A stretch of DNA of 64,000 nucleotides from Candidatus Bathyarchaeota archaeon (GCA_963706285.1 CAVPLU010000010.1:196087-260086), one strand, 5' to 3'; positions 7,902 through 49,123 are shown, counted from the stretch's first letter. The notes: generated by a model not told the origin, from the sequence alone. A program made the numbers and translations.

Positions 7902-9003
7902 ATGGACAAAGCGCTAGAGGACAGGGTCGCGCGGCTGAAAGACGTAGGGAAGCAACGAGGTTTTTCTGGATTCATTATCGCCACCCCTCCTAACCTGCGA
8001 TACTTCACAGGCATATCTGTCCTGGCGATAGAAAGGTTCGCGGCAGTCATAATATCAATCGATTCAGAGCCCGTGATCGTGGTTCCTGAATTGGAAGAAG
8101 AGAAGGTCAAATCACTGTCTCCGTTCAAGAGCGTACTGAAGTATGACGACGCGGAGGGTCCCAAGGGTCTGTTAAAGTCTGTGTTGGAAGAGCTGGACCT
8201 AACCCGAGGCAAGTTGGGAGTTGAAGGCTTTTTTCCTTACCGATTCTCCCAGATGGTGAGTGATGCCGCACCGAAAGCACAACTGGAAGAAGCGTCAGAT
8301 ATTTTCATGGAATTCAGAATTATCAAGACCGCAGACGAGCTTGAGCTAATGCGGAAGGCAGGAGAAATCATTACCAAAGGCATCGATGCTGGCATCAATG
8401 CTACACGAGTCGGAGCAACGGAGCTTGAGATAAGCTTCGAGATAGAACGTAGAATAAGAGCAGTTGGGCGGCGATTCGGTGCCCTACTGCATCGTTCTTA
8501 GTGGTGGGAACGCGGCGTTTCCGCATGGTTCTTCTTCAAAGGTTGAAATCCGAAAAGGCGATGCGCTCGTAATGGATGTCAGCGCAACGTATGAAGGCTA
8601 CTTCGCGGATCTAACTAGGACAACGTTTGTCGGGAGCGCTTCCGCCAAACAACGCGAAATCTATGCTACAGTGCTTCAGGCTCAGGAGAATGCAATCGAG
8701 TCGGTAAGGCCAGGAATTCGCGCGGGTGAGATCGATAAAGCTGCCAGGAATGTCATCAAACAGGCAGGCTACGGGGGGCGTTTCATACATAGAACCGGGC
8801 ACGGGCTAGGTCTTGAAGTCCACGAAGACCCGAGCATAACGGAGAATTGCGCGACGATCCTGAAGTCCGGAATGACCTTTACTGTTGAACCGGGAATATA
8901 TCTGCCACAGGAGCTTGGTGTCAGGATAGAAGACAACATCGTAGTCACCGAGAAAGGGAAAGCAACGATTGCTGCCTGTGAAAAGAGTCTGACGATAGTC
9001 TAG
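7902..9003 (+). CDS. pepQ: Xaa-Pro dipeptidase / aminopeptidase P (M24B), frameshift near 8465
   Basis: Creatinase-like N-domain (NLRYFTG, RIIKT..E) followed by DLTRT, HRTGHGLGLEVHE, TVEPGIY and GVRIED. Confidence 0.9.
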
Positions 9004-21475: not shown

Positions 21476-22874
21476 CTATAGTCTTCCTCCTCGGGTCATT
21501 CTCTTCAGATCTAGGATTCGATCGACTTCGTCGTTTGGAATGCCCTCTTCCAACATTGCCTCACGAATTGTCTTGTTCTCTTCTTGTGCCCTCTTCACTA
21601 TCTGGGCAGCACGGTCGTATCCAATTGTTGGAGCGATGGCAGTCACCAATGCGTAGCTTCTCTCAGCGAGGTCTTCACATCGACTACGGTTCGCCTTTAT
21701 TCCGTCTATACATTTCTCGGCGAGAACGGTGGCCGCGTTTGCTTCTATCCCTATTGACTGGAGCAAGTTGAAGGCGATGAGCGGCATCATCGTATTGAGC
21801 TCAAGCGTTCCTGACTGGCCGGCGAGCGTGATCGTTAGGTCGTTCCCGATGACTTGTGCACAAACCATGTTCACAGATTCGGGCACCACGGGGTTTACCT
21901 TTCCAGGCATAATACTGGAGCCAGGCTGGATTGCAGGCAGCTCAATCTCGCCAAGTCCAGTTTTTGGGCCGGAACTGAGCAGGCGGAGGTCGTTTGCTAT
22001 CTTCATCAAACTGACAGCCACAGAACGGAGGGCGCCGCTCGTCTCCACCGCGGCATCGCGATTCTGAAGTGCTTCAAACCTGTTCTTGGAAGGACAGAAT
22101 TTCATTCCGGTGATATCATTGATCTTCTTTACTACCAGTTTCCCGAAATCTGGATGCGCATTCAAGCCAGTTCCGATCGCCGTTCCGCCGATTGGGAGTT
22201 CCAGAAGTGAACCTGCTCGACTTCTCGATTCGCTCGATTCCATGGGCGATCATGCTGGCGTATCCGCTGAATTCCTGGCCTAGTGTGATGGGAACTGCGT
22301 CTTGTAGATGCGTTCTTCCCGGCTTCACCACATCAGAGAATTCTCCAGCTTTCTTCTCAAGAGCCAAGGCGAGTTTCTTCAATGCCGGCAGGAGATCGGT
22401 CAAGATCGCTTCTGTGGCTGATACGTGAATAGCGGTTGGGAAGACATCGTTTGAGGATTGGCTCATATTCACGTGGTCGTTTGGGTGAACAACTCCTTTG
22501 TCACCTCTATTGCCACCCAAGAGTTCTATTGCACGGTTGGCAATCACCTCGTTCGCATTCATGTTCGTTGAAGTTCCAGATCCTGTTTGGAAGATCTCAA
22601 CAACAAACTGCTCATCGAACTTTCCGTCCGCAACTTCCTTAGCGGCCTGAACGATTGCCTTTCCCTTGTTTTTATCAAGAAGGCCTAGCTGCATGTTCAC
22701 GTCGGCCGAAGCCTCCTTGACAATTCCAAGGGCTCGGATGAACCTTCTAGGGAAGACCAGCCCAGATATCTGAAAGTTCTCGAGTGCCCTCTGTGTCTGA
22801 GCGCCATAGTATGCGCTCGCCGGAACCTTGACGCTCCCCATAGTATCTTGTTCAATCCTGAATGATTGGCTCAA
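21476..22874 (-). CDS. fumC: Class II fumarate hydratase, frameshift near 22230
   Basis: [43 protein letters not shown] and [11 protein letters not shown]. Confidence 0.93.
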
Positions 22875-23134: not shown

Positions 23135-24579
23135 CAAGAAACCCCACAGCTCTTTAGGGGTGGGATGAATTGCGTGTCAGTCTTCAGGCTGACCGATTCC
23201 GCATGATAGTTTCACGCATCTCTTTACGCTTTAAGCAGTCACGGCGAGAAGGGTTGTGAAGTTGCAGGTCATCAAGACCGTTCGCATACCTGTTCACTAC
23301 GCCGTCACGAAGCGTAAACGCTCTATTCTGGATTCGTTGACGGCGCGAACCACATACGGGGTCTGGTTATGGTCGAAGCTGTTCAAGGAGCATAAGCTGA
23401 AGGGCTCCTACGCGGATAGGCGACGATTCTACGAGCAGGTCAAAGCGGACGCGAAGCTTGGCTCGCTCACTCAATGCTGCTTCGATACAGCCTCGTGGAT
23501 GTGGCGGAGCTACCATGAAGCGCACAAGGCTTGGCGTAGGAACGTTGCGATCGCCAGACGTGAAGGCAAGCATAGGTGGCTTCGCAAGCTCCTACGACGC
23601 GAACCACAAGAACCATTCACGAACGGCATGAACGGCAAAGTTCCGATATGGTTTGACAGTCGCTTCGGCACGATTGAACAGTCGAAGCACATCAAAATCT
23701 GTTCATATGTGGCGCGTGTCTCAACGCTCCGTCGAGGAGTCAAGCTGACGATTCCATTGAATCCTGCCAAGCATCATCAGGACATGTTTCAGCATGGCAC
23801 TATGAAGAGCTTTCAAATCATCAAACGGGATGGCAAGTATTGTGTTCATGTGAAGATGGAATCCGTGGTTCCAGATCAGCCCGTCTATGCAGTACGTGGA
23901 ATTGACCTTGGAGTGAAGCGGTCAATCGCATCCGTGATGCTGAAGCCGAATCAGCCTCTAAGGTCCAGTGACTTCACAATCCAGACGGACGGGTTGAAAC
24001 GAGATCGGCTGAACCGCCTAGAGAAACGAGTAGCAGAACTACAGCGTGCAAAGAAGTGGGAACCACTAAAACGTATCCGACACAAGCGACTACACCTAGG
24101 CGAATACTATGACAGACTAGCAGCAAAGCAAATTGCCGTAACATCACAGAACTGTCTCGTCGCAGTCGGCTATCCGAAAGGCATCAAATATGAGAACTTC
24201 AAAGGCAACGATAAGGCAAAGCTTCGCAAAATGCTCGCCCGTTGGACGTATGGACGAGAAATCCGCTACATCCAGGAAGAATGCGCGAAAGTCGGTGTTC
24301 CAATAGAAGCAGCAGACGAACGTTGGTCCAGTCGAACATGTCACCGTTGCGGTTCACGCAATACCGAACGCATCACGCAGAGCATCTTTCACTGCTGGAA
24401 CTGCGAACATATCTACAACGCGGACTTCAACAGTAGCATCAATATCGGGTCGCGTTTCTTGCCAAAGGCCACGACTCGACAGGCCACAGATGATTTGGCC
24501 TATACTGGGAATGAACAGGCAAGAGAAATAGTAGCCTGTGAGCCCAGAAGCCCACACCCATTCATGGGTGGGTAATCAC
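23135..24579 (+). mobile_element. IS200/IS605-family non-autonomous (tnpB-only, IS1341-like) element
   Basis: Left end TTGAG|CAAGAAACCCCACAGCTCTTTAGGGGTGGGATGAATTG and right end GAAGCCCACACCCATTCATGGGTGGGTAATCAC. Both have subterminal hairpins; no tnpA is present. Confidence 0.85.
23256..24575 (+). CDS. tnpB: TnpB RNA-guided endonuclease
   Basis: RuvC-I GIDLG, Zn finger SRTCHRC...CWNC, RuvC-III NADFNSSINI. Confidence 0.93.
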   Translation: MKLQVIKTVRIPVHYAVTKRKRSILDSLTARTTYGVWLWSKLFKEHKLKGSYADRRRFYEQVKADAKLGSLTQCCFDTASWMWRSYHEAHKAWRRNVAIARREGKHRWLRKLLRREPQEPFTNGMNGKVPIWFDSRFGTIEQSKHIKICSYVARVSTLRRGVKLTIPLNPAKHHQDMFQHGTMKSFQIIKRDGKYCVHVKMESVVPDQPVYAVRGIDLGVKRSIASVMLKPNQPLRSSDFTIQTDGLKRDRLNRLEKRVAELQRAKKWEPLKRIRHKRLHLGEYYDRLAAKQIAVTSQNCLVAVGYPKGIKYENFKGNDKAKLRKMLARWTYGREIRYIQEECAKVGVPIEAADERWSSRTCHRCGSRNTERITQSIFHCWNCEHIYNADFNSSINIGSRFLPKATTRQATDDLAYTGNEQAREIVACEPRSPHPFMGG

Positions 24580-35775: not shown

Positions 35776-37433
35776 CTAGCCGAAACCGTTCACATGTCCT
35801 TGGAAGTAGGATAGGATTGGACCGAGTGCAAGGAATGGAAAGAACGTTAACGCAACAAGGATCAACGTGGCACCTATGAGAACAATGGAGAATGTTATGC
35901 TGTCAGTTCGTAGTGCAACCTCGGCGCTTCTCTTTCTCCCGATCATTGAGCCCGCGAGTGCAAGCAACAAACCCATCGGGGCATATCGGCCCGCGAACAT
36001 CACAAGGGCAGTTGACACGTTGAAGAAAGGTGTATTCGCGGATGCACCTAGGAAGTCCGATCCGTTGTTTGCTGCGGCGGTCGTGAACTCGTATAGGATT
36101 TGAGTGAAGCCAATCGAGTTGCTTGCCACTCCGATTGCGTTTGCGGCTCCGGTCGCGTATGCAAGCACCGTTGGAATCAGAATTATGATGGGGTGGACTA
36201 GGAAGGCAACCATTACTAGCGTAACGTCTCTTCCGTTGATCTTCATTCCCAAATATTCAGGAGTTCTTCCTGACATGAGACCAACAATGAATACTGTGAT
36301 TACGACATACATGACCATGTACATCAATCCCACACCCTTTCCTCCTGGCGTTGCCTGAATCAGCATCCCCATGAAACCAGAGAGTATGACGAGTGGGTGC
36401 ATCGCGGAGAGCGAAGCGTTGACTGAACCTGTGGTTACGGCTGTCGTGACAACGGTCCAGAAGGCTGAGAAGAATCCTCCAAACCGAACCTCCATACCCG
36501 GACCCAAAACAGGATTGGGAACAAATGCGATGATGAGATCAATTACGAAGAGTCCGTACGAGGCCCAGAGTATGGGTCTGCTCTCTTTCCTCTTTCCAAG
36601 GATCTCTCCATACACAAAGCACAGCACTGTTGGCATGAGTAGCATTAAGATGATTTCAAGAACATTCGATGCAGGATTCGGATTTTGGAACGGATAGGCG
36701 GAATTGGCCCCGTAGTATCCTCCGCCGTTAGTTCCAATCTGCATGATGGAGACTAGGGAGGCGACAGGGCCGACCAAGATCAGCTGTGTCGCGCCTTCTA
36801 CTGTCTTCACAACTGAATATCCGCTGAGAGTCTGAGGCACGCCGAGCCAAACAAAGCACAAGGACGCTACAAAACATAATGGGAACAGTATCCTAGTCAG
36901 GGATTTCACGAAGTCAACGTAGAAATTGCCCAAGTCTTTAGAGCCGGTCTTGAAACCTCGTACCATCGCTATCGCTGCGCAGAGTCCGGAACCGGCTGAC
37001 GTGAATTGGAGAAACTGAATTGCCGTCATCTGGCTCAAATACGAAAGGGTACTCTCGCCGATTGTAATGCTGAAGATTCGTATTGGTACCGAAGGAGATG
37101 ACTGTATTGAATGCAAGATCCCACGTCAGACCAGGAAACCCTTGAGGATTAAGCGGAAGTCTATCTTGGAAAATGAGTACTCGAAAGGCGAGGATCATTT
37201 GGAGCATGTTGAGCATGATCAACGAGAGGAAGTATTCCTTCCAATCCATTGAGCGGTTTGGATTCACGCCACCGAGCTTGTAGATCCAGCTCTCGAGTGG
37301 ATTCAAAACTCGGTCAAGGCGGCTTGGAGCCACGAGCAAAGACCCTTGTGACATATGGCGCCAGAAGGCGGCCCAAAGCAAGCACTAAGGCCAAGATCAG
37401 AATTATGACCGACGCTTGAATGAGATCTATCAA
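35776..37433 (-). CDS. kdpA: K+-transporting ATPase subunit A (two frameshifts, near 37330 and 37060)
   Basis: ISFGTNTNLQHY, GNFYVD, GTNGGG, GRTPEYLG and AANNGS. The N-terminus LIDLIQASV...LAPY is read from TTG 37433. Confidence 0.93.
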
Positions 37434-42977: not shown

Positions 42978-43409
42978 TCACGGTTCACTCACCACTTTCG
43001 GCTCAACTGTAACTTGAGACCTGATTGAGTTCGCAATCAAGCTGTATTTCCGAGCCCAATCCAACGCTTTAGCCACTCGTTCCAGTGACTCACTCTTGAC
43101 CTTGATCACCGGTCGCAGAATCGTTTGTTCGAACGTTGAAGTCCGATCCAGACGCTCAACCACACGACCTTCAGCTTCGCATTCGTAGGAAACCAACTGA
43201 ATCTTCAGTCGTTCAGATGCCCAAATGAACATCAAATGGAAGCACATGTTCAACGCAGCGACAAAGGCATCCTCAGGCGTCATGACGCCGGATTTCCCTT
43301 GTAAAGCAGGTGGCGCCGAGAAAGTCATCCGTGGGCCGTTGCTGCATGTCAACTCGCCGTCATGGCCGCCCGTCCAAACAACCTTCGTCTTGTGTATGCG
43401 GCACTTCAC
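42978..43409 (-). CDS. OsmC/Ohr family protein
   Basis: VVWTGG, APP..G, TPEDAFVAALNMC, and KYSLIANSI where the second Cys is replaced by Ser. Confidence 0.88.
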   Translation of the reverse strand: MKCRIHKTKVVWTGGHDGELTCSNGPRMTFSAPPALQGKSGVMTPEDAFVAALNMCFHLMFIWASERLKIQLVSYECEAEGRVVERLDRTSTFEQTILRPVIKVKSESLERVAKALDWARKYSLIANSIRSQVTVEPKVVSEP

Positions 43410-43822
43410 TTACCTCCAGTGCTCTAGACTCTGGTCGACTTCTTGCGCGATCCTTTCAGCCACCTTCTCAGCCAAGACTAGAGCGTCACTATCCAGCTTT
43501 CGGCGAGCCAGATCTCGAGCAACCGGGACTTCTTTGTCAGGTCGGTTACGACTATTGATGATGCCGGTTTGCCGCTGTAACGTTCGGTGGCGATCTTTGC
43601 ACATTGCTTCTCGCAGCCGTCAACCGTAATGGTCGGATAGCATTTTGCGAATGCTCTCTCTTCTTTGCCGCCTGCAAGAAAAAGTGGAAGGCAGATCGTC
43701 ACGGTCTGGTCAGGCCTGAGTTGCTCCAGGAGCATCCGTGTGGCCACTCGTGAGATGGTTCCCTCAACGCATCCTTCGCCACTGCAAGATATGACGCCAA
43801 CCTTCTTCTCCGGTAGATTCAA
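43410..43822 (-). CDS. DGC-domain putative zinc-binding protein, frameshift near 43530
   Basis: SCSG, ICLP and VDGCEKQCA; the C-terminal helix lies in ORF 43410-43604. Confidence 0.85.
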
Positions 43823-43832
43823 CCATCACCAT

Positions 43833-44246
43833 TCACTTCTCAAGTAACTCGTCCACCTTCTTCGCGATGTCCCTAGCAAGAATTGCCGAGAGTTGCTGAC
43901 CATCGTGATCCAGGAAAGTGACGGTCTTCGGTTTCAGTTTCCTGTTCTCCCTGAGCGCATCAACCACTCTGAAGCTGGCTGCTAGGTCGCCACCTGCAAG
44001 CTTCACGTTCTTCTGTGCACATTGAAGCGGGCACCCGTCAACTGTGATGCATCTATTGTCGTGTATGAGTCGAAGCGTCTCCTCGTCCCCGCTAACGATG
44101 AGGGCAAGACAGGTGGTTTCAGTCACTCCTTTCCTCAGATTGTCGACAACTTCGTAGGTTGCGTCTCTGCCTATGCTGCCCAGCGCCTTGCCGATTCCAC
44201 TGCAGGAGATCACAACTACTTTCTTCTGCGCTGTCGCGGCTTCCAT
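43833..44246 (-). CDS. DGC-domain putative zinc-binding protein
   Basis: SCSG, TCL and VDGCPLQCA. Confidence 0.9.
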   Translation of the reverse strand: MEAATAQKKVVVISCSGIGKALGSIGRDATYEVVDNLRKGVTETTCLALIVSGDEETLRLIHDNRCITVDGCPLQCAQKNVKLAGGDLAASFRVVDALRENRKLKPKTVTFLDHDGQQLSAILARDIAKKVDELLEK

Positions 44247-44248
44247 TT

Positions 44249-44710
44249 CTACCTAGACTCCAGCTTCTTACTCTCGGTCTCCAGTTTCTTGAGCATCAGT
44301 TTGAAGTAGTCGTCAGCGCTCATCAGCGACTTCAGGTCGCCCTCAAGGCTGTGAGGTGTGAGGATGATCAACCAGCCTTCGCCGTAGGGATCTGAATTCA
44401 CCAGCTCTGGCTTGTCGAGGAGCATGTCATTCGCTTTCTCAACCGTCCCTGATATGGGAGAGAGCAGTGAGATGGTTGTTTTCGCAGTTTCCAGAGTCCC
44501 AATCTCCATTTGCATCTGAACAGTTGACCCCGGTTTCACGACGAGATCGACAAATGCAGCATCTCCTCCGGTCCTCTGCAAATAGTCGGTAACGCCAACC
44601 CTGACTTTGGCACCCTCCACACTTGCCCAGAGCCCGTCTTCAGTGTAGTAGTATTCCTTGCGGACTCGAAGCTCGAATTTGTCGAAGACAGTCTGCAGGT
44701 ATTCGCTCAA
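44249..44710 (-). CDS. gcvH: Glycine cleavage H-like lipoyl carrier protein
   Basis: YYYTEDGLW, RVGVTDY, GTLETAK (lipoyl-Lys kept), SPISG and PELVNSDPYGEGW. Confidence 0.93.
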   Translation of the reverse strand: MSEYLQTVFDKFELRVRKEYYYTEDGLWASVEGAKVRVGVTDYLQRTGGDAAFVDLVVKPGSTVQMQMEIGTLETAKTTISLLSPISGTVEKANDMLLDKPELVNSDPYGEGWLIILTPHSLEGDLKSLMSADDYFKLMLKKLETESKKLESR

Positions 44711-44907
44711 GCCATGTCAGCCTCGGTTGAGCGATGTGATTTGCAGGAGAAGCAGTAATCAGTCTCTCTGTTGGTCCAGTACTCCTTATTGCAGTTCGGA
44801 CATGTCGTCTTTCGGAACGGGTCTCTCTTCGGACGAGTCGCACGTAACAGGTCGGTCATTCTCGAAGCGCAAGCACACTGCTTCAGGCTCGGTTCATCCT
44901 TGGACAT
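44707..44907 (-). CDS. Small Cys-rich protein (CxC + CxxC/CxxC)
   Basis: CACA...CPNC...WTNR..YCFSC; its stop overlaps the gcvH start. Confidence 0.75.
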   Translation of the reverse strand: MSKDEPSLKQCACASRMTDLLRATRPKRDPFRKTTCPNCNKEYWTNRETDYCFSCKSHRSTEADMA

Positions 44908-44937
44908 TCCATACCCCTCTTTCCCAGTTCAGGTAAG

Positions 44938-46011
44938 CTAACAGATCCCGCCTTTGCCAACCTTCTGTGCCGGTTTCGCTTCCACCTCGATAACTTGAAG
45001 GTGGTTTCTTCTTCGAAGAGCCATCCAAACTATAGTGAGCATGACAGGAATCTCAATGAGAGGACCCACAACAGTTGAGACAGCTACCATGGGCATCGAT
45101 GCGAAAGCTGTCAATGCTATGGCTATGGCTAACTCGAAGTTACGGCCCGTGCAGTGGAATCCCATCGTTGATGCGTCTTCATAGTTGTAACCCATTCGCC
45201 TCGTTGTATAGTATACTAGGTTGTAGAGCAGAAAGAAGAAGAGTACCACTGGAATGGCCATCTGCCAGATGAGGTTCGGATTATCAATTATGACGCCTCC
45301 TCTCAGAGAGAACATCACCACCATGGTGAATAGAAGCGCCACAAGTTGCATTGCATTATAGTAAGGAATCAGCTTCTTGTTCAGCCACTCCTCAGACTTT
45401 CGCTTTATGACTTCTCTTCGAGTAATCACTCCGAACAGCAAAGGTAAGCCAAGATACAGAAGTACACTCTGACCAATCAGCACGATGTCTATGGCAATGT
45501 AGGTTCCAACAAGCAACGCAATGTACAGAGGCGTCGTGAAGATTTGGATTATTGAGTTCCAAGCCATTAGCACTATTCCAAGCGGTCCGTTGCCCTTGGC
45601 CAAATCAGTCCATACGAGAACCATCGCAATGCAAGGCGCAACACCCAGCAGAATCAGCCCAGTCCAAAGGTACCGCGCGGTCTCAGCAGTAATCAAACCG
45701 AAGTATGGGAGAACCTGTTCAAAGAATATGAAACCGAGAAAGTACAGCAGGAACGGATTAACTGCATAGTTGAAGAATACAATAACGCCGACCTGTCTCT
45801 TACTCTTCAAAGCGTCTTTGAGTTCGCCCAACTCGATCTTGGTCATTGCCGGGTAGATCATGAGAAAGAGTCCAATTGGAATGCCAACCTCAAGATGTCC
45901 TGCAATCTGAGGTGCATATTTTCCAAGAGAGAGGCCAATGATTATGCAAAGGACAATCCACACCGCTAGAAGCTTCTCTATCCAACCAAGACCGCCACGG
46001 CTTTCGCTCAT
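44938..46011 (-). CDS. acr3: Acr3-family arsenite efflux transporter
   Basis: MIYPAM, APCIAMVLVW, NFELAIAIA and VVGPLIEIPVML; start taken at MSESR. Confidence 0.95.
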   Translation of the reverse strand: MSESRGGLGWIEKLLAVWIVLCIIIGLSLGKYAPQIAGHLEVGIPIGLFLMIYPAMTKIELGELKDALKSKRQVGVIVFFNYAVNPFLLYFLGFIFFEQVLPYFGLITAETARYLWTGLILLGVAPCIAMVLVWTDLAKGNGPLGIVLMAWNSIIQIFTTPLYIALLVGTYIAIDIVLIGQSVLLYLGLPLLFGVITRREVIKRKSEEWLNKKLIPYYNAMQLVALLFTMVVMFSLRGGVIIDNPNLIWQMAIPVVLFFFLLYNLVYYTTRRMGYNYEDASTMGFHCTGRNFELAIAIALTAFASMPMVAVSTVVGPLIEIPVMLTIVWMALRRRNHLQVIEVEAKPAQKVGKGGIC

Positions 46012-46016
46012 CGTGA

Positions 46017-46415
46017 TCACGACGTCTCCGTAACCAACGAGATGGTCTTCGTCAGCAACTCTGCAACTTTGGGATTGGACAGTTTGTAGAAGACCCATTT
46101 TCCTTCCTTGCGAGAAGTAACCAGGCTTGATCTCTCGAGAATTCCCAGGTGATGCGATGTGGTCGGCTGCGTCAAGTCTAGTGCAGCCATCACTTCGCAT
46201 GCGCAAAGCTCTTCCTTTGCAAGAAGTTTCAGAATCTTCACGCGGGTACTATCTGCAAGCCCAAAGAATGCTGATTCCAATCGTTTGAGGGTCAGGTCAT
46301 CGATTTCTTTGGCTCTCTTCTTCAGCTGAGAAATTCGTTCGTTAGGTCGACAGGATCCCCGAAGGCCTGAGTCGACTAATCGTCTCAACCTATCCTCGGT
46401 AAGTACCACGCTCAT
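46017..46415 (-). CDS. arsR: ArsR/SmtB family metalloregulator
   Basis: LADSTRVKIL, ELCACE (As(III)-binding-type box), SHHL and RKEGKWVFY. Confidence 0.93.
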   Translation of the reverse strand: MSVVLTEDRLRRLVDSGLRGSCRPNERISQLKKRAKEIDDLTLKRLESAFFGLADSTRVKILKLLAKEELCACEVMAALDLTQPTTSHHLGILERSSLVTSRKEGKWVFYKLSNPKVAELLTKTISLVTETS

Positions 46416-46442
46416 CTGAAATCTTGGTGCAAGACTCAGATT

Positions 46443-46458
46443 CATAGTATTAAATATG
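46443..46458 (-). promoter_or_regulatory. TATA box with overlapping inverted repeat (putative ArsR operator)
   Basis: Minus strand CATA-TTTAATAC-TATG about 30 nt upstream of arsR. Confidence 0.45.
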
Positions 46459-46489
46459 TGGTTTTGGGAACTCCGCGCATCTAATCAGA

Positions 46490-47338
46490 ATGTCTAAGGC
46501 TTATATGCCGACCGATCAAGGCATGATCGCGATCTTCATGACTCAATGTCCGAAATGCGGAAAAGAAATCCCATCTGGTTCACAGTTCTGCGTGAACTGT
46601 GGGGCACCGATTTCCAGTCCCAGTCTTGTTCAGGTGCCGTACAAGTTTGAGATCAAGTATCAGCCCTCCTATTCGATGCTAGTTCTCTCCCTCAATGAAG
46701 GGCAAGTGGTTGTCGCTGAGGCAGGTGCGATGACGTACATGACACCGAATATGCAGGTCAAGACTCGTGCGCGTGAAAAGAGCATTCTTGGCACACTTGG
46801 AATTTCGATTCTTGGCGGCCAATCACTTTTCGTGAACGAGTACTGGCCGAATCAGGGGCAAGGAGAGATCGGACTCGTTTCAGCTCCAGTTGGTGACATC
46901 ATGAAGATCAATGTTGCACGAGATAGAGGCTACATAATTCAGAAATCGGCTTACATTGCCTCCTCGCCGAACGTCAGTCTTGACATACAATGGCAGGGAT
47001 TCACGAAGGGCCTGTTCGGACAAGGATTATTCATGATCAAGACCACGGGAGAGGGAGAACTCTTCATAAATTGTTTCGGCGCGATCGACAAACACGTCTT
47101 GCAGCCAGGCGAGTCACTTGTGGTGGACAACTTCCACCTCGTCGGATTTAGCGACTCATGCCAATATCAGGTCCAGAAGTTTGGAGGATGGAAAGAAACC
47201 CTCCTCAGCGGCGAGGGCTTGGTCACGCAAATCACTGGTCCAGGCGAGGTTCTGATACAAACCAAGAACATACGCGAACTCGTTGAATGGCTCTGGGTAC
47301 TGCTTGAACCAAAAGTACGCTCTACTGCCGCCCGCTGA
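46490..47338 (+). CDS. AIM24 / TIGR00266 family protein with N-terminal zinc ribbon
   Basis: CPKCG...FCVNCG, then AEAGAM, GGQSLFVN, VDNFHLV and SGEGLV...GPG. Confidence 0.9.
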   Translation: MSKAYMPTDQGMIAIFMTQCPKCGKEIPSGSQFCVNCGAPISSPSLVQVPYKFEIKYQPSYSMLVLSLNEGQVVVAEAGAMTYMTPNMQVKTRAREKSILGTLGISILGGQSLFVNEYWPNQGQGEIGLVSAPVGDIMKINVARDRGYIIQKSAYIASSPNVSLDIQWQGFTKGLFGQGLFMIKTTGEGELFINCFGAIDKHVLQPGESLVVDNFHLVGFSDSCQYQVQKFGGWKETLLSGEGLVTQITGPGEVLIQTKNIRELVEWLWVLLEPKVRSTAAR

Positions 47339-47487: not shown

Positions 47488-47874
47488 TTGTCTATGGGTA
47501 AGGTTGTGCACTTCGAAATACCTGCCGACGATCTATCACGCGCGAAGAAATTCTACAGCACCGTATTTGGCTGGAGGGCGGACGAGATGCCTGAGATGGA
47601 GTATGTAATGATCGGAACCACGGAATCCGATGAAAACGGAATGCCGAAACAGCCAGGCGCCATAAACGGCGGCATGCTCAAACGGCAAGACCCAGTCAGA
47701 CACCCAGTTGTCACAATAGACGTCGAGAACATGGATGACGCACTTGCAAAAGTGAAAAAGAACGGCGGACAGATAGTCCGAGAGAAACTCCCAGTCGGCG
47801 AGATGGGCTTCGCCGCGTATTTCAAGGACTCCGAAGGAAACGTACTCGGCCTCTGGCAAAATTCAGGTAAGTAA
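47488..47874 (+). CDS. VOC / glyoxalase family protein
   Basis: VVHFEIPADD, FYSTVFGW, INGG and FKDSEGN. Confidence 0.92.
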   Translation: MSMGKVVHFEIPADDLSRAKKFYSTVFGWRADEMPEMEYVMIGTTESDENGMPKQPGAINGGMLKRQDPVRHPVVTIDVENMDDALAKVKKNGGQIVREKLPVGEMGFAAYFKDSEGNVLGLWQNSGK

Positions 47875-47957: not shown

Positions 47958-48788
47958 TCAAGATCGTGGTTTGACACCGCAAACGCTTATGCTCAAGACT
48001 GACCCTGCGAGGTCTTCTATCTCGTCGTGTCGCAGTCCTGACTTCTCAATGATCTCTTTCGCGGCTGGATCGTTACCTATGATTTCCGTGGGAAAAGGTG
48101 TCTCATCAACCGTCCTTATTTCATGAAATCCTGCTAGTCTTATGGTCTCAAGGTATTCTTCTTTCTTGATTGCTCCAGCGATACAACCCACGTATGCTTC
48201 CACCGACTCCCTAACAGCGCTCGGAAGCTCCTTCGTCAAGACCATGTCTGAAATCATGAACCTGCCACCTGGCCTTAGCACTCTGAATGCTTCATTGAAC
48301 ACTCTATTCTTGTTCGGAGCTAGGTTGATGACACAGTTTGAGATAACAACATCAACAGAATTATCTGCCGCTGGAAGGTTTTCGATCTCTCCAAGCCTGA
48401 ATTCAACATTCGCATAGCTTCCTTTCTTGGCATTCTGTCGGGCTTTTTCTATCATGTCAGGGGTCATGTCTACGCCGATGACTCTGCCGTTCTTGCCGAC
48501 TTTGTTGGCAGCAAGGAAGCAGTCGAACCCGGCTCCTGATCCGAGGTCTAGAATAGTTTCTCCTTCTTTCAGTGATGCGATGGCGACAGGGTTCCCACAG
48601 CCCAAACCGAGATTTGCGCCTTGAGGTACCGCTTTGAGATCATCATCTTTGTATCCTATTTCCTTGCTCACATTCTCTGGGCTGCAAGAACAGGCAGTAC
48701 CAGCAGCACAGCAAGACTTCTCCGTTCTAGCTAGTTCTCCGTACTTCTCTCGCACAATCTCTCTAATCTTATCCTCTTTCATTTTCAA
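47958..48788 (-). CDS. arsM: Arsenite S-adenosylmethionine methyltransferase
   Basis: N-terminal SCC, GLGCGNP, LDLGSGAGFD, SNCVINL and GCIAGA. Confidence 0.93.
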   Translation of the reverse strand: MKMKEDKIREIVREKYGELARTEKSCCAAGTACSCSPENVSKEIGYKDDDLKAVPQGANLGLGCGNPVAIASLKEGETILDLGSGAGFDCFLAANKVGKNGRVIGVDMTPDMIEKARQNAKKGSYANVEFRLGEIENLPAADNSVDVVISNCVINLAPNKNRVFNEAFRVLRPGGRFMISDMVLTKELPSAVRESVEAYVGCIAGAIKKEEYLETIRLAGFHEIRTVDETPFPTEIIGNDPAAKEIIEKSGLRHDEIEDLAGSVLSISVCGVKPRS

Positions 48789-48800
48789 ACACTTCTGATC

Positions 48801-49082
48801 CTATTTCTGTAGTATCCCGTTCATCATAGGCCCGAGCATATCTCGCATCATGACTGCCATGTCTTCAACCTTGACCAGCGAGATACAGCAGACTCTTCCT
48901 TGCTTCTCCCAACTCACGACGGCAAACTTGTCTCCAACGCGAACTCCCGCCTTGTCCCTCACGTCCTTCGGAAGCACCATTTGCCCTCTCTCGTCGACAC
49001 TAACTACAGATTCCACCTTGCAGCAACCGAATTCTCCGCCTGATACTGAGCGAGAAGACCTATTCGCGCCTTTCTTAACCAT
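48801..49082 (-). CDS. AbrB-fold HgcAB-associated protein (HgcC-like)
   Basis: CCKVESVVSVDERGQMVLPKDVR...GDKFAVV...CCISLVK. Confidence 0.75.
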   Translation of the reverse strand: MVKKGANRSSRSVSGGEFGCCKVESVVSVDERGQMVLPKDVRDKAGVRVGDKFAVVSWEKQGRVCCISLVKVEDMAVMMRDMLGPMMNGILQK

Positions 49083-49123
49083 CGCCAATCTGGCCCGAAG
49101 AACCACGGCTTGGCAGATAAGGT

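Follow-up and report, generated by a model that had tools for sequence, protein, structure and literature searches.

We analysed a stretch of 64,000 nucleotides from a Candidatus Bathyarchaeota archaeon (GCA_963706285.1, CAVPLU010000010.1:196087-260086; G000:C10:196087-260086), referred to as the window in the following. The source genome comprises 2.13 Mb in 21 contigs and is 89% complete, and close relatives of its proteins are assigned to Bathyarchaeia. Open reading frame (ORF) calling together with Pfam searches revealed a run of seven co-oriented genes, all on the minus strand, which encode an ArsR-type regulator, an Acr3-like permease, a cysteine-rich microprotein, a GcvH-like lipoyl-carrier paralogue (H-like protein), two proteins of the DGC family (DGC-A and DGC-B) and an OsmC-like protein (Table 1). 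A first-pass annotation of this DNA had read the run as an arsenic operon extended by a candidate lipoate-based system for trivalent arsenic. The gene order from arsR to osmC was recovered as described there, with a Pfam family for every product except the microprotein, and the first five intergenic distances were again read as 5, 30, -4, 2 and 10 nt. The sixth, given as 0 nt between DGC-B and the OsmC-like gene, has to be corrected: the open frame of DGC-B ends at 43478, which leaves 68 nt to the GTG start codon of the OsmC-like gene, and a distance of 0 results only if the frame is read through. As stated in the same annotation, no gcvT, gcvP, arsC or arsD domain was present among the window ORFs scanned, and arsA was likewise not found in the gene cluster.

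Table 1 Features of the arsenic gene run and its surroundings, with positions counted from the first nucleotide of the window.
Feature	Position	Strand	Evidence and remarks
ArsR-type regulator (arsR)	46017..46415	-	Pfam HTH_5, 61 bits; NCBIfam HTH_metalloreg, 92.9 bits (cut-off 55)
Acr3-like arsenite efflux permease, 357 aa	44938..46011	-	Pfam SBF, 138 bits
Microprotein, 66 aa, six Cys	44707..44907	-	No Pfam or NCBIfam family
GcvH-like lipoyl-carrier paralogue (H-like), 153 aa, Lys77 in ETAK	44249..44710	-	Pfam GCV_H (PF01597), 96 bits
DGC-A, 137 aa	43833..44246	-	Pfam DGC (PF08859), 54.2 bits (cut-off 27)
DGC-B, disrupted	43410..43822 (open frame 43478..43822)	-	Pfam DGC, 68.1 bits (cut-off 27)
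Atypical OsmC-fold protein, 143 aa	42978..43409	-	Pfam OsmC (PF02566), 46.6 bits; GTG start
Arsenite methyltransferase (arsM), same arsenic island	47958..48788	-	NCBIfam PRK11873 (NF008823), 359.1 bits (cut-off 263)
AbrB-type small protein upstream of arsM	48801..49106	-	NCBIfam NF040962 'HgcAB-associated protein HgcC', 117 bits (cut-off 70)
TTTAATA, possible archaeal TATA box	46448..46454	-	Within the 74-nt spacer between the divergent genes, some 33 nt ahead of the arsR ATG; sequence reading only
AIM24-family protein with N-terminal zinc ribbon	46490..47338	+	Divergent from arsR across the 74-nt spacer

An H protein encoded at this position might be an ordinary component of the glycine cleavage system (GCS) that merely adjoins an ars operon, a reading with which the Pfam GCV_H match and the conserved lipoyl lysine would agree. 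This lysine is indeed kept, as noted in the first-pass annotation: Lys77 aligns to the lipoyl lysine of the solved GcvH 1onl and is conserved in 25 of 25 close relatives, in at least 90% of 32 diverse relatives and in 19 of 19 fusion proteins (see below). However, the source genome possesses a separate canonical gcvH (C10:186059-186415; 150 bits) 3 kb from gcvT. Both genes, which together span C10:182464-186415, are located on the same contig 10-14 kb before the window start, and two gcvP sets occur on contigs C3 and C4. LplA-type ligases and Lpd (C16:36633-37994; 554 bits, above the curated cut-off) are encoded in this genome as well. The H-like protein is 38% identical to the canonical paralogue and scores below the NCBIfam cut-offs for GcvH (97.6 versus 115.85 bits for TIGR00527 and 105.6 versus 117 bits for NF002270), which the paralogue passes with 165.1 and 169.6 bits, respectively. 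It also bears an N-terminal DKFxLRV extension that canonical H proteins lack. Its gene is flanked by the Acr3-like and DGC genes and not by gcvT or gcvP, and it is likewise placed in 35 loci of the class Bathyarchaeia.

In a quick IQ-TREE phylogeny of 151 representative rows, in which support was moderate, the H-like protein fell into a group of 79 rows that included all 20 DGC fusions (SH-aLRT 80), whereas the canonical paralogue and a GcvH-GDC_P protein belonged to a separate group of 52 rows (SH-aLRT 91). The stand-alone H protein suspected earlier thus falls outside the group of canonical H proteins, and the genome has its own gcvH, gcvT, gcvP, Lpd and LplA. Judged by its sequence, the H-like protein is not a glycine-cleavage H protein and is of separate descent; probably it is lipoylated and acts as a dedicated carrier.

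Conservation of the gene run within the class was determined in a sample of 301 Bathyarchaeia genomes, in which 35 loci were scored with custom hidden Markov models (HMMs). As these genomes are kin and not independent, the class counts are descriptive. DGC occurred in 72 of the 301 genomes, and comparison of coordinates showed that an H-like gene abuts a DGC gene at the 35 loci, which belong to 32 genomes other than that of the window. In the vicinity of this H-like/DGC cassette we found Acr3 at 28 loci, ArsR at 27, either of the two at 31 and ArsM at seven; the four loci that have neither break off no more than about 1 kb from the cassette or belong to contigs shorter than 4.5 kb. The Acr3 gene frequently borders on that of the H-like protein or overlaps it, and in L012 and L014 the OsmC-like gene is directly followed by arsM. 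Two architectures could be distinguished. At 26 of the 35 loci the order is H-DGC-DGC-OsmC, and an OsmC-like gene is present in 25. At the other nine (L169, L170, L172, L173, L175, L180, L182, L190 and L191), the H-like gene comes after three to five tandem DGC genes, and an OsmC-like gene is absent; ArsR or Acr3 is near most of them. Six further matches to the H-like protein, including its N-terminal extension, came from genomes without DGC.

Ten arsR-acr3 loci were found via the H-like sequence, eight of which carry the cassette (L009-L016; L013 ends inside DGC-A). In L017 (6001-6144), arsR-acr3 are intact, and all that is left of the cassette is the N-terminal 49 residues of the H-like protein. 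In L018 (6001-6159), where arsR-acr3 are intact as well, the first 18 H-like residues are joined to the last 33 residues of the OsmC-like protein, which represents a deletion scar. As these decay remnants show, the cassette is an accessory module.

Beyond the class, metagenome contigs were scanned with a generic H-protein pattern, which served as a built-in control, and scores against the H-like HMM divided the loci into 19 H-like loci (at least 157 bits) and 61 canonical-type loci (at most 151 bits). Among the H-like loci, DGC was present in 17, OsmC-like in ten, ArsR in nine and Acr3 in three; the two without DGC stop at the H-like gene. Not one of these four neighbours occurred at any of the 61 canonical-type loci. 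The arrangement of H-like, DGC and ars genes is therefore far beyond chance, and a chance neighbourhood of H-like and ars genes is practically excluded. Together with the conserved linkage and the natural fusions to DGC, this control also renders an ordinary glycine-cleavage H protein beside an ars operon extremely improbable. Pfam annotation of the neighbours covered 15 of the 19 H-like loci and revealed LMWP ArsC-like proteins (L023, L030), Thioredoxin_3 (L027, L030), ArsP_1 (L040) and Acr3 (L022, L023, L040).

In a sample of 401 Bacillota genomes, a full-length fusion of DGC and H domains occurred in nine. Seven of the nine loci were annotated, with the scan of L136 limited to four ORFs; L133 and L137, whose ORFs are arranged like those of L132 and L136, were left out. 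Two further DGC genes accompany the fusion in six of the seven loci, and L136 shows one among the four ORFs scanned. ArsR was found in four of the seven, ArsM-like proteins in two (L134, L138), Lpd-like proteins in two, LplA in one (L140) and ferredoxin in two. Where the genes are not fused, Acr3 stands together with H-DGC-DGC in three of four Bacillota loci (L141, L143, L145); in the fourth (L142), rhodanese and TauE precede the cassette. Hence, the linkage of H-like and DGC genes with ars genes, on which the earlier proposal depended, is conserved in Bathyarchaeia as well as in bacteria. Upstream of the fusion, six loci (L132, L134, L135, L138, L139, L140) encode a protein of 117-143 aa with a CxCxxxC motif (CVCTGKC) along with HPQLC and AC(A/S)PN. 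The fusion clusters also encode a protein of 110 aa in which CSCGCGC occurs (L132:293-622 and L136:298-627); neither protein gave a Pfam match.

The relation between H-like and DGC proteins extends to single polypeptides. When relatives of the H-like protein were searched among 1.84 billion representative sequences, 19 of the 20 matches listed of 280-320 aa consisted of an N-terminal DGC and a C-terminal GCV_H domain. The exception, P0133, shows GCV_H in two stretches and lacks DGC, and the same DGC-GCV_H order was present in P0264, a protein of 200 aa. Along with the lysine, three cysteines are invariant in the 19 fusions. Across 40 aligned DGC sequences, comprising DGC-A, DGC-B and the fusions, these are the only invariant cysteines (Cys15, Cys72 and Cys76 in DGC-A); the fourth 'DGC' cysteine is present in the window and variable elsewhere. 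The AlphaFold2 (AF2) model of DGC-A (pLDDT 92.5) displays a flavodoxin-like alpha/beta fold, in which the cysteines sit at the C-terminal ends of strands or at the start of the next helix. From this topology, they would be expected to cluster in space. A sequence search of the PDB with DGC-A gave no match, and no clear solved relative emerged from Foldseek (best E 2e-3, TM 0.44) or from VIA-align, where the best hit, 3pu6_A (Z 9.0), stands among many flavodoxin-like folds with Z 7-8. A tblastn search of plasmids with DGC-A was without match. For the fusion P0138, AF2 predicted two confident domains (pLDDT 87.8, pTM 0.58) that are joined by a low-confidence linker (132-138), and given this pTM and the weak linker, no fixed interface between the DGC and H domains is predicted. 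The predicted complex of the H-like protein with DGC-A received a score of 0.00 which, controls being absent, carries no weight either way. The gene set is conserved as a unit that is tied to ArsR, Acr3 and ArsM, and H-like and DGC are coupled genetically and, in the fusions, physically. In bacterial cassettes (L023, L026, L029, L030, L031, L040, L044, L071), the second DGC is extended at its C-terminus by about 80-100 aa, in which a CxC(G/S)S motif is conserved; the second DGC of Bathyarchaeia is without this extension and has a single linker cysteine (PGCS) instead.

The DGC-B copy in the window is disrupted. Its conserved C-terminal helix is encoded in a different frame, which runs to 43410 directly before the GTG of the OsmC-like gene. 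DGC-B forms one uninterrupted frame of 137 aa in five of seven orthologues compared, and that of L016 is disrupted as well. Contigs of close relatives from public runs have one base fewer at 43529 and one fewer at 43506/43507, which implies that two surplus bases are present in the window copy of DGC-B. Other genes of the assembly are also split across frames, namely fumarase (21476-22874), an M24 peptidase (7902-9003) and, outside the window, gcvT (C10:182464-183229), and KdpA (35776-37116) is truncated and starts at profile position 115. These split and truncated genes suggest indel errors in the assembly, so that assembly indels are the likelier cause of the DGC-B disruption rather than a real defect.

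The start of ArsR at 46415 agrees with the alignment of orthologues, and a CxC motif (ELCACE) is kept in all full-length rows. Both features of an As(III)-responsive ArsR are present, that is, the HTH_5 domain and a CxC in the first helix of the DNA-binding region, which we take to be the As(III)-sensing site. An inverted repeat that might serve as operator was not found in the arsR promoter region (46400-46500). The Acr3-like pump reached 265.6 bits against TIGR00832 (acr3), just below the cut-off of 282.8 bits, and covers model positions 1-327. It is 94-96% identical to the pumps of L010 and L013. At other loci, the same slot is occupied by a second type of Acr3 (413.9 bits on TIGR00832 in the case of L012), which is about 32% identical. 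The occurrence of two such different pumps in one slot points to selection on the pairing of pump and cassette and not to shared descent alone. The microprotein between pump and H-like protein contains six conserved cysteines arranged as CxC plus CPxC...CFxC; it is kept in L009-L012 and L016 and reached at least 50 bits in 11 of the 35 class loci. Unnamed microprotein-like clusters from Bathyarchaeota and Chloroflexota appeared in the Atlas (score 0.97), which we take as a lead only.

The OsmC-like protein was compared with its closest solved chains, the uncharacterised 2onf and 2d7v, and with Ohr 1zb8. Cys56, which is present in 12 of 12 rows, aligns with the first cysteine, at the peroxidatic position, of all three, and a second cysteine, Cys77, is invariant to the same extent. 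However, the position of the resolving cysteine, which is a cysteine in the C-terminal helix of 2onf and 2d7v, is occupied by Ser or Gly in 11 of 11 evaluable rows and also in nine of nine rows of a second alignment. The position of the catalytic Arg of Ohr 1zb8 (GGRDG) is His in ten of 12 rows, including the window, and Arg in two; the Glu of the PE motif is retained. With the roles that we presume for Arg, Glu and the resolving cysteine in Ohr/OsmC enzymes, the loss of the resolving cysteine and, mostly, of the catalytic Arg places the OsmC-like protein in a distinct subfamily, which departs from Ohr/OsmC peroxidases in two of the features that define them. The first-pass annotation had drawn a parallel to Ohr/OsmC enzymes which take electrons from lipoylated proteins; the OsmC fold and the first cysteine conform to this parallel, and the resolving cysteine and, in most rows, the catalytic Arg do not.

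These findings also bear on a lipoyl-dependent peroxide defence, in which the dihydrolipoyl form of the H-like protein would reduce an OsmC/Ohr-type peroxidase that is induced since arsenic causes oxidative stress. The OsmC fold and the retained cysteine at the peroxidatic position would suit this scheme, but the substitutions described above speak against it, and it leaves the two DGC proteins without a role. Moreover, nine loci have no OsmC-like gene, and the hosts belong to a lineage that we presume to consist of anaerobes. We therefore regard peroxide defence as highly unlikely. Lipoyl-dependent Ohr peroxidases have reportedly been described, and Trichomonas vaginalis is said to possess a relay of H-protein, L-protein and OsmC. 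What our gene set has in common with such systems is a stand-alone H-type carrier encoded together with an OsmC-fold protein, and Lpd in the genome. It differs by the missing resolving cysteine and the mostly missing catalytic Arg, by two DGC proteins as obligate neighbours and by the predicted control by ArsR.

The conserved linkage, the separate position of the H-like protein and the presence of a canonical GCS set in the same genome support the earlier proposal that a module based on lipoate is linked to the arsenic operon, and the genes very probably constitute a lipoyl/cysteine module dedicated to the response to arsenic. The more specific roles suggested in the first-pass annotation for the H protein, as a decoy or chaperone of As(III) for Acr3 or as a redox hub between DGC and OsmC, are candidate roles. 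As its mode of action, we tentatively propose that trivalent arsenic is captured and handed off by the lipoyl dithiol and a cysteine relay. In this model, As(III) would release ArsR, and the gene run would be transcribed as a single unit. The H-like protein would be lipoylated by LplA and reduced by Lpd, both of which are encoded elsewhere in the genome. Its dihydrolipoyl arm and the three invariant DGC cysteines would then capture trivalent arsenic, that is As(III) and perhaps methyl-As(III). Thiol exchange would transfer the captured arsenic either to Acr3, to be exported, or to ArsM, to be methylated. The OsmC-like protein, with Cys56 and Cys77, could act as a partner in thiol exchange or recycling. 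Such a capture may spare the essential lipoyl enzymes of the cell, in a host that we presume to be without glutathione. Three-sulfur sites are the usual ligand set of As(III). In a narrower version of the model, the cassette would be the first system to employ protein-bound lipoate itself as a metalloid ligand. The dihydrolipoyl arm and one DGC cysteine would form the three-sulfur site of a metallochaperone for a secondary arsenite carrier, which removes As(III) or methyl-As(III) from the cytoplasm and delivers it to Acr3 or ArsM without an intermediate. We consider this narrower version rather doubtful.

A number of observations weigh against capture and hand-off. The cassette is dispensable, as only remnants of it persist beside arsR-acr3 in L017 and L018, and just 33 of the 301 class genomes, including that of the window, possess it. 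The nine loci without an OsmC-like gene indicate that OsmC is not an obligate part. At six Bathyarchaeia loci (L103, L105, L117, L120, L123, L127), DGC stands beside ArsR with no H-like gene within 1.5 kb, and the DGC genes concerned are the best Pfam scorers, so that DGC has a link to ArsR of its own. The four-cysteine site of DGC could just as well bind Zn or an Fe-S cluster. If the disruption of DGC-B were real, this copy of the cassette may be impaired. Finally, the genes for Lpd-like proteins, ferredoxin and other Fe-S proteins in related clusters suit a catalytic redox cycle at least as well as stoichiometric binding.

Such a cycle could take the form of an electron relay, which leads from NAD(P)H via Lpd (or via ferredoxin/Fe-S partners in other phyla) to the lipoylated H-like protein and from there to the cysteines or metal centres of DGC and to the OsmC-like protein. 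It would power arsenic chemistry, either the recycling of ArsM disulfides or the reduction of arsenate or pentavalent organoarsenicals, in place of thioredoxin or glutathione. Lpd-like genes are located within three related clusters (L135, L140, L145), one of which also contains LplA (L140), and Fe-S or ferredoxin genes lie near the cassette in six (L023, L027, L029, L030, L135, L139), yet the cluster of the window and those of the Bathyarchaeia loci contain no Lpd-like or Fe-S gene. ArsM, as a possible beneficiary, is adjacent in the seven class loci mentioned above and in L134 and L138, and the OsmC fold is that of a thiol-redox enzyme; nevertheless, no substrate of the relay can be named. 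Pfam ArsC was not found in the 89%-complete genome, whose sole LMWP protein scores below the arsC cut-offs, which would fit such a relay. However, LMWP ArsC and Thioredoxin_3 proteins also occur in some of the bacterial loci (L023, L030), so that the module is not a simple replacement. In sum, an electron relay, the main rival of capture and hand-off, appears possible but somewhat unlikely.

Thio-arsenic species are common in sulfidic, anoxic habitats. A third role for the lipoyl arm would be in sulfur or persulfide handling, where it carries sulfane sulfur as in sHdr-LbpA and thereby makes or breaks thio-arsenic species. According to the available portion of the source, the LbpA proteins are GcvH-like lipoate-binding proteins that function in sulfur oxidation, outside glycine cleavage (PMC6067878). 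The H-like protein resembles them as a GcvH paralogue outside glycine cleavage, with dedicated ligases in some of the clusters (LplA in L140). A few of our loci have neighbours that would match, namely rhodanese and TauE before the cassette in L142, a cysteine desulfurase fragment flanking L132 and NifU_N near L027, but with three loci such sulfur-transfer neighbours are few. Genes for Hdr-like CCG, DsrE or TusA proteins were detected neither among the window ORFs nor in the cassette loci annotated, which comprise 15 of the 19 metagenome loci and the Bacillota loci, and the partners are DGC and OsmC-like proteins in an arsenic context. Sulfur handling is thus an unlikely function of the module.

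The frame into which the module is set is that of a known ars operon. With classical operons, where arsR-acr3 occurs with arsC, arsM, arsP or Thioredoxin_3/ArsE, the window shares a CxC-type ArsR, an Acr3-type pump and a nearby ArsM; it differs by the lipoyl carrier, the two DGC proteins, the OsmC-fold protein and the microprotein and by the lack of arsC, arsD and arsA in the cluster. ArsD is a metallochaperone for the ArsA ATPase, which binds As(III) by three thiols and feeds it into efflux; we know of no chaperone for Acr3. The idea of a three-thiol hand-off would be common to ArsD and our proposal. Here, however, the recipient would be the secondary carrier Acr3, the proposed ligands include a lipoyl dithiol, and no sequence relation is expected. 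In Staphylococcus aureus, GcvH-L is reportedly encoded together with macrodomain and sirtuin partners. The available portion of one paper describes it as a second H protein, which acts in oxidative stress defence and not in glycine cleavage (PMC12440151). It thus has in common with our protein that an H protein outside glycine cleavage serves in stress defence and differs, as far as that portion of the paper extends, in being without DGC, OsmC-like or ars genes. The module therefore belongs neither to the lipoyl-dependent Ohr/OsmC systems nor to sHdr-LbpA nor to the ArsD-type chaperones.

Arsenite toxicity is textbook-linked to binding to dihydrolipoyl groups. In the literature searched, which comprised open sources judged by titles and the beginnings of abstracts, with subscription journals outside coverage, we found no description of the module and no arsenic-resistance system that uses lipoate. 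The available portion of one preprint mentions an ars operon whose last gene encodes a DGC protein without known function (10.1101/2022.10.17.512643). To this, the lipoyl module of Bathyarchaeia adds figures on prevalence, the direct coupling to Acr3 with two types of pump, an architecture without OsmC, the six-cysteine microprotein and the decay remnants. If characterised, the module would represent a new class of components for arsenic resistance, provide a first function for the DGC domain and for the atypical OsmC subfamily, and explain how trivalent arsenic is handled in glutathione-free anaerobes. If lipoate did take part in a three-sulfur site, the classic target of arsenic would have been turned into a defence. 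A characterised module would also improve the annotation of arsenic-cycling genes in metagenomes from wetland, peat and sediment; public runs that hold parts of the stretch are labelled as metagenomes of these three kinds, and no RNA run is listed for it.

The arsenic island continues upstream of the gene run. About 1.5 kb upstream of arsR, and on the same strand, lie arsM and the gene for the AbrB-type protein, with genes for the AIM24/zinc-ribbon protein and a VOC protein on the opposite strand in between. As the AIM24-type gene shares the 74-nt spacer with arsR, it may also share the ArsR-controlled region. ArsI carries a pair of cysteines. The VOC protein (47488-47874) was considered as an ArsI-type lyase and rejected, since its sequence contains no cysteine. 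The AbrB-type protein belongs to the HgcC family, which is named for mercury-methylation loci and here stands beside an arsenic methyltransferase; a pair of AbrB-type gene and arsM after the cassette was also present in L012 and L014. At a distance from the arsenic genes, the window contains an ORF of 439 aa (23256-24575, plus strand) with a Cas12f1-like/TnpB TNB domain, which is located directly upstream of the genes for ribosomal proteins S13 and S4.

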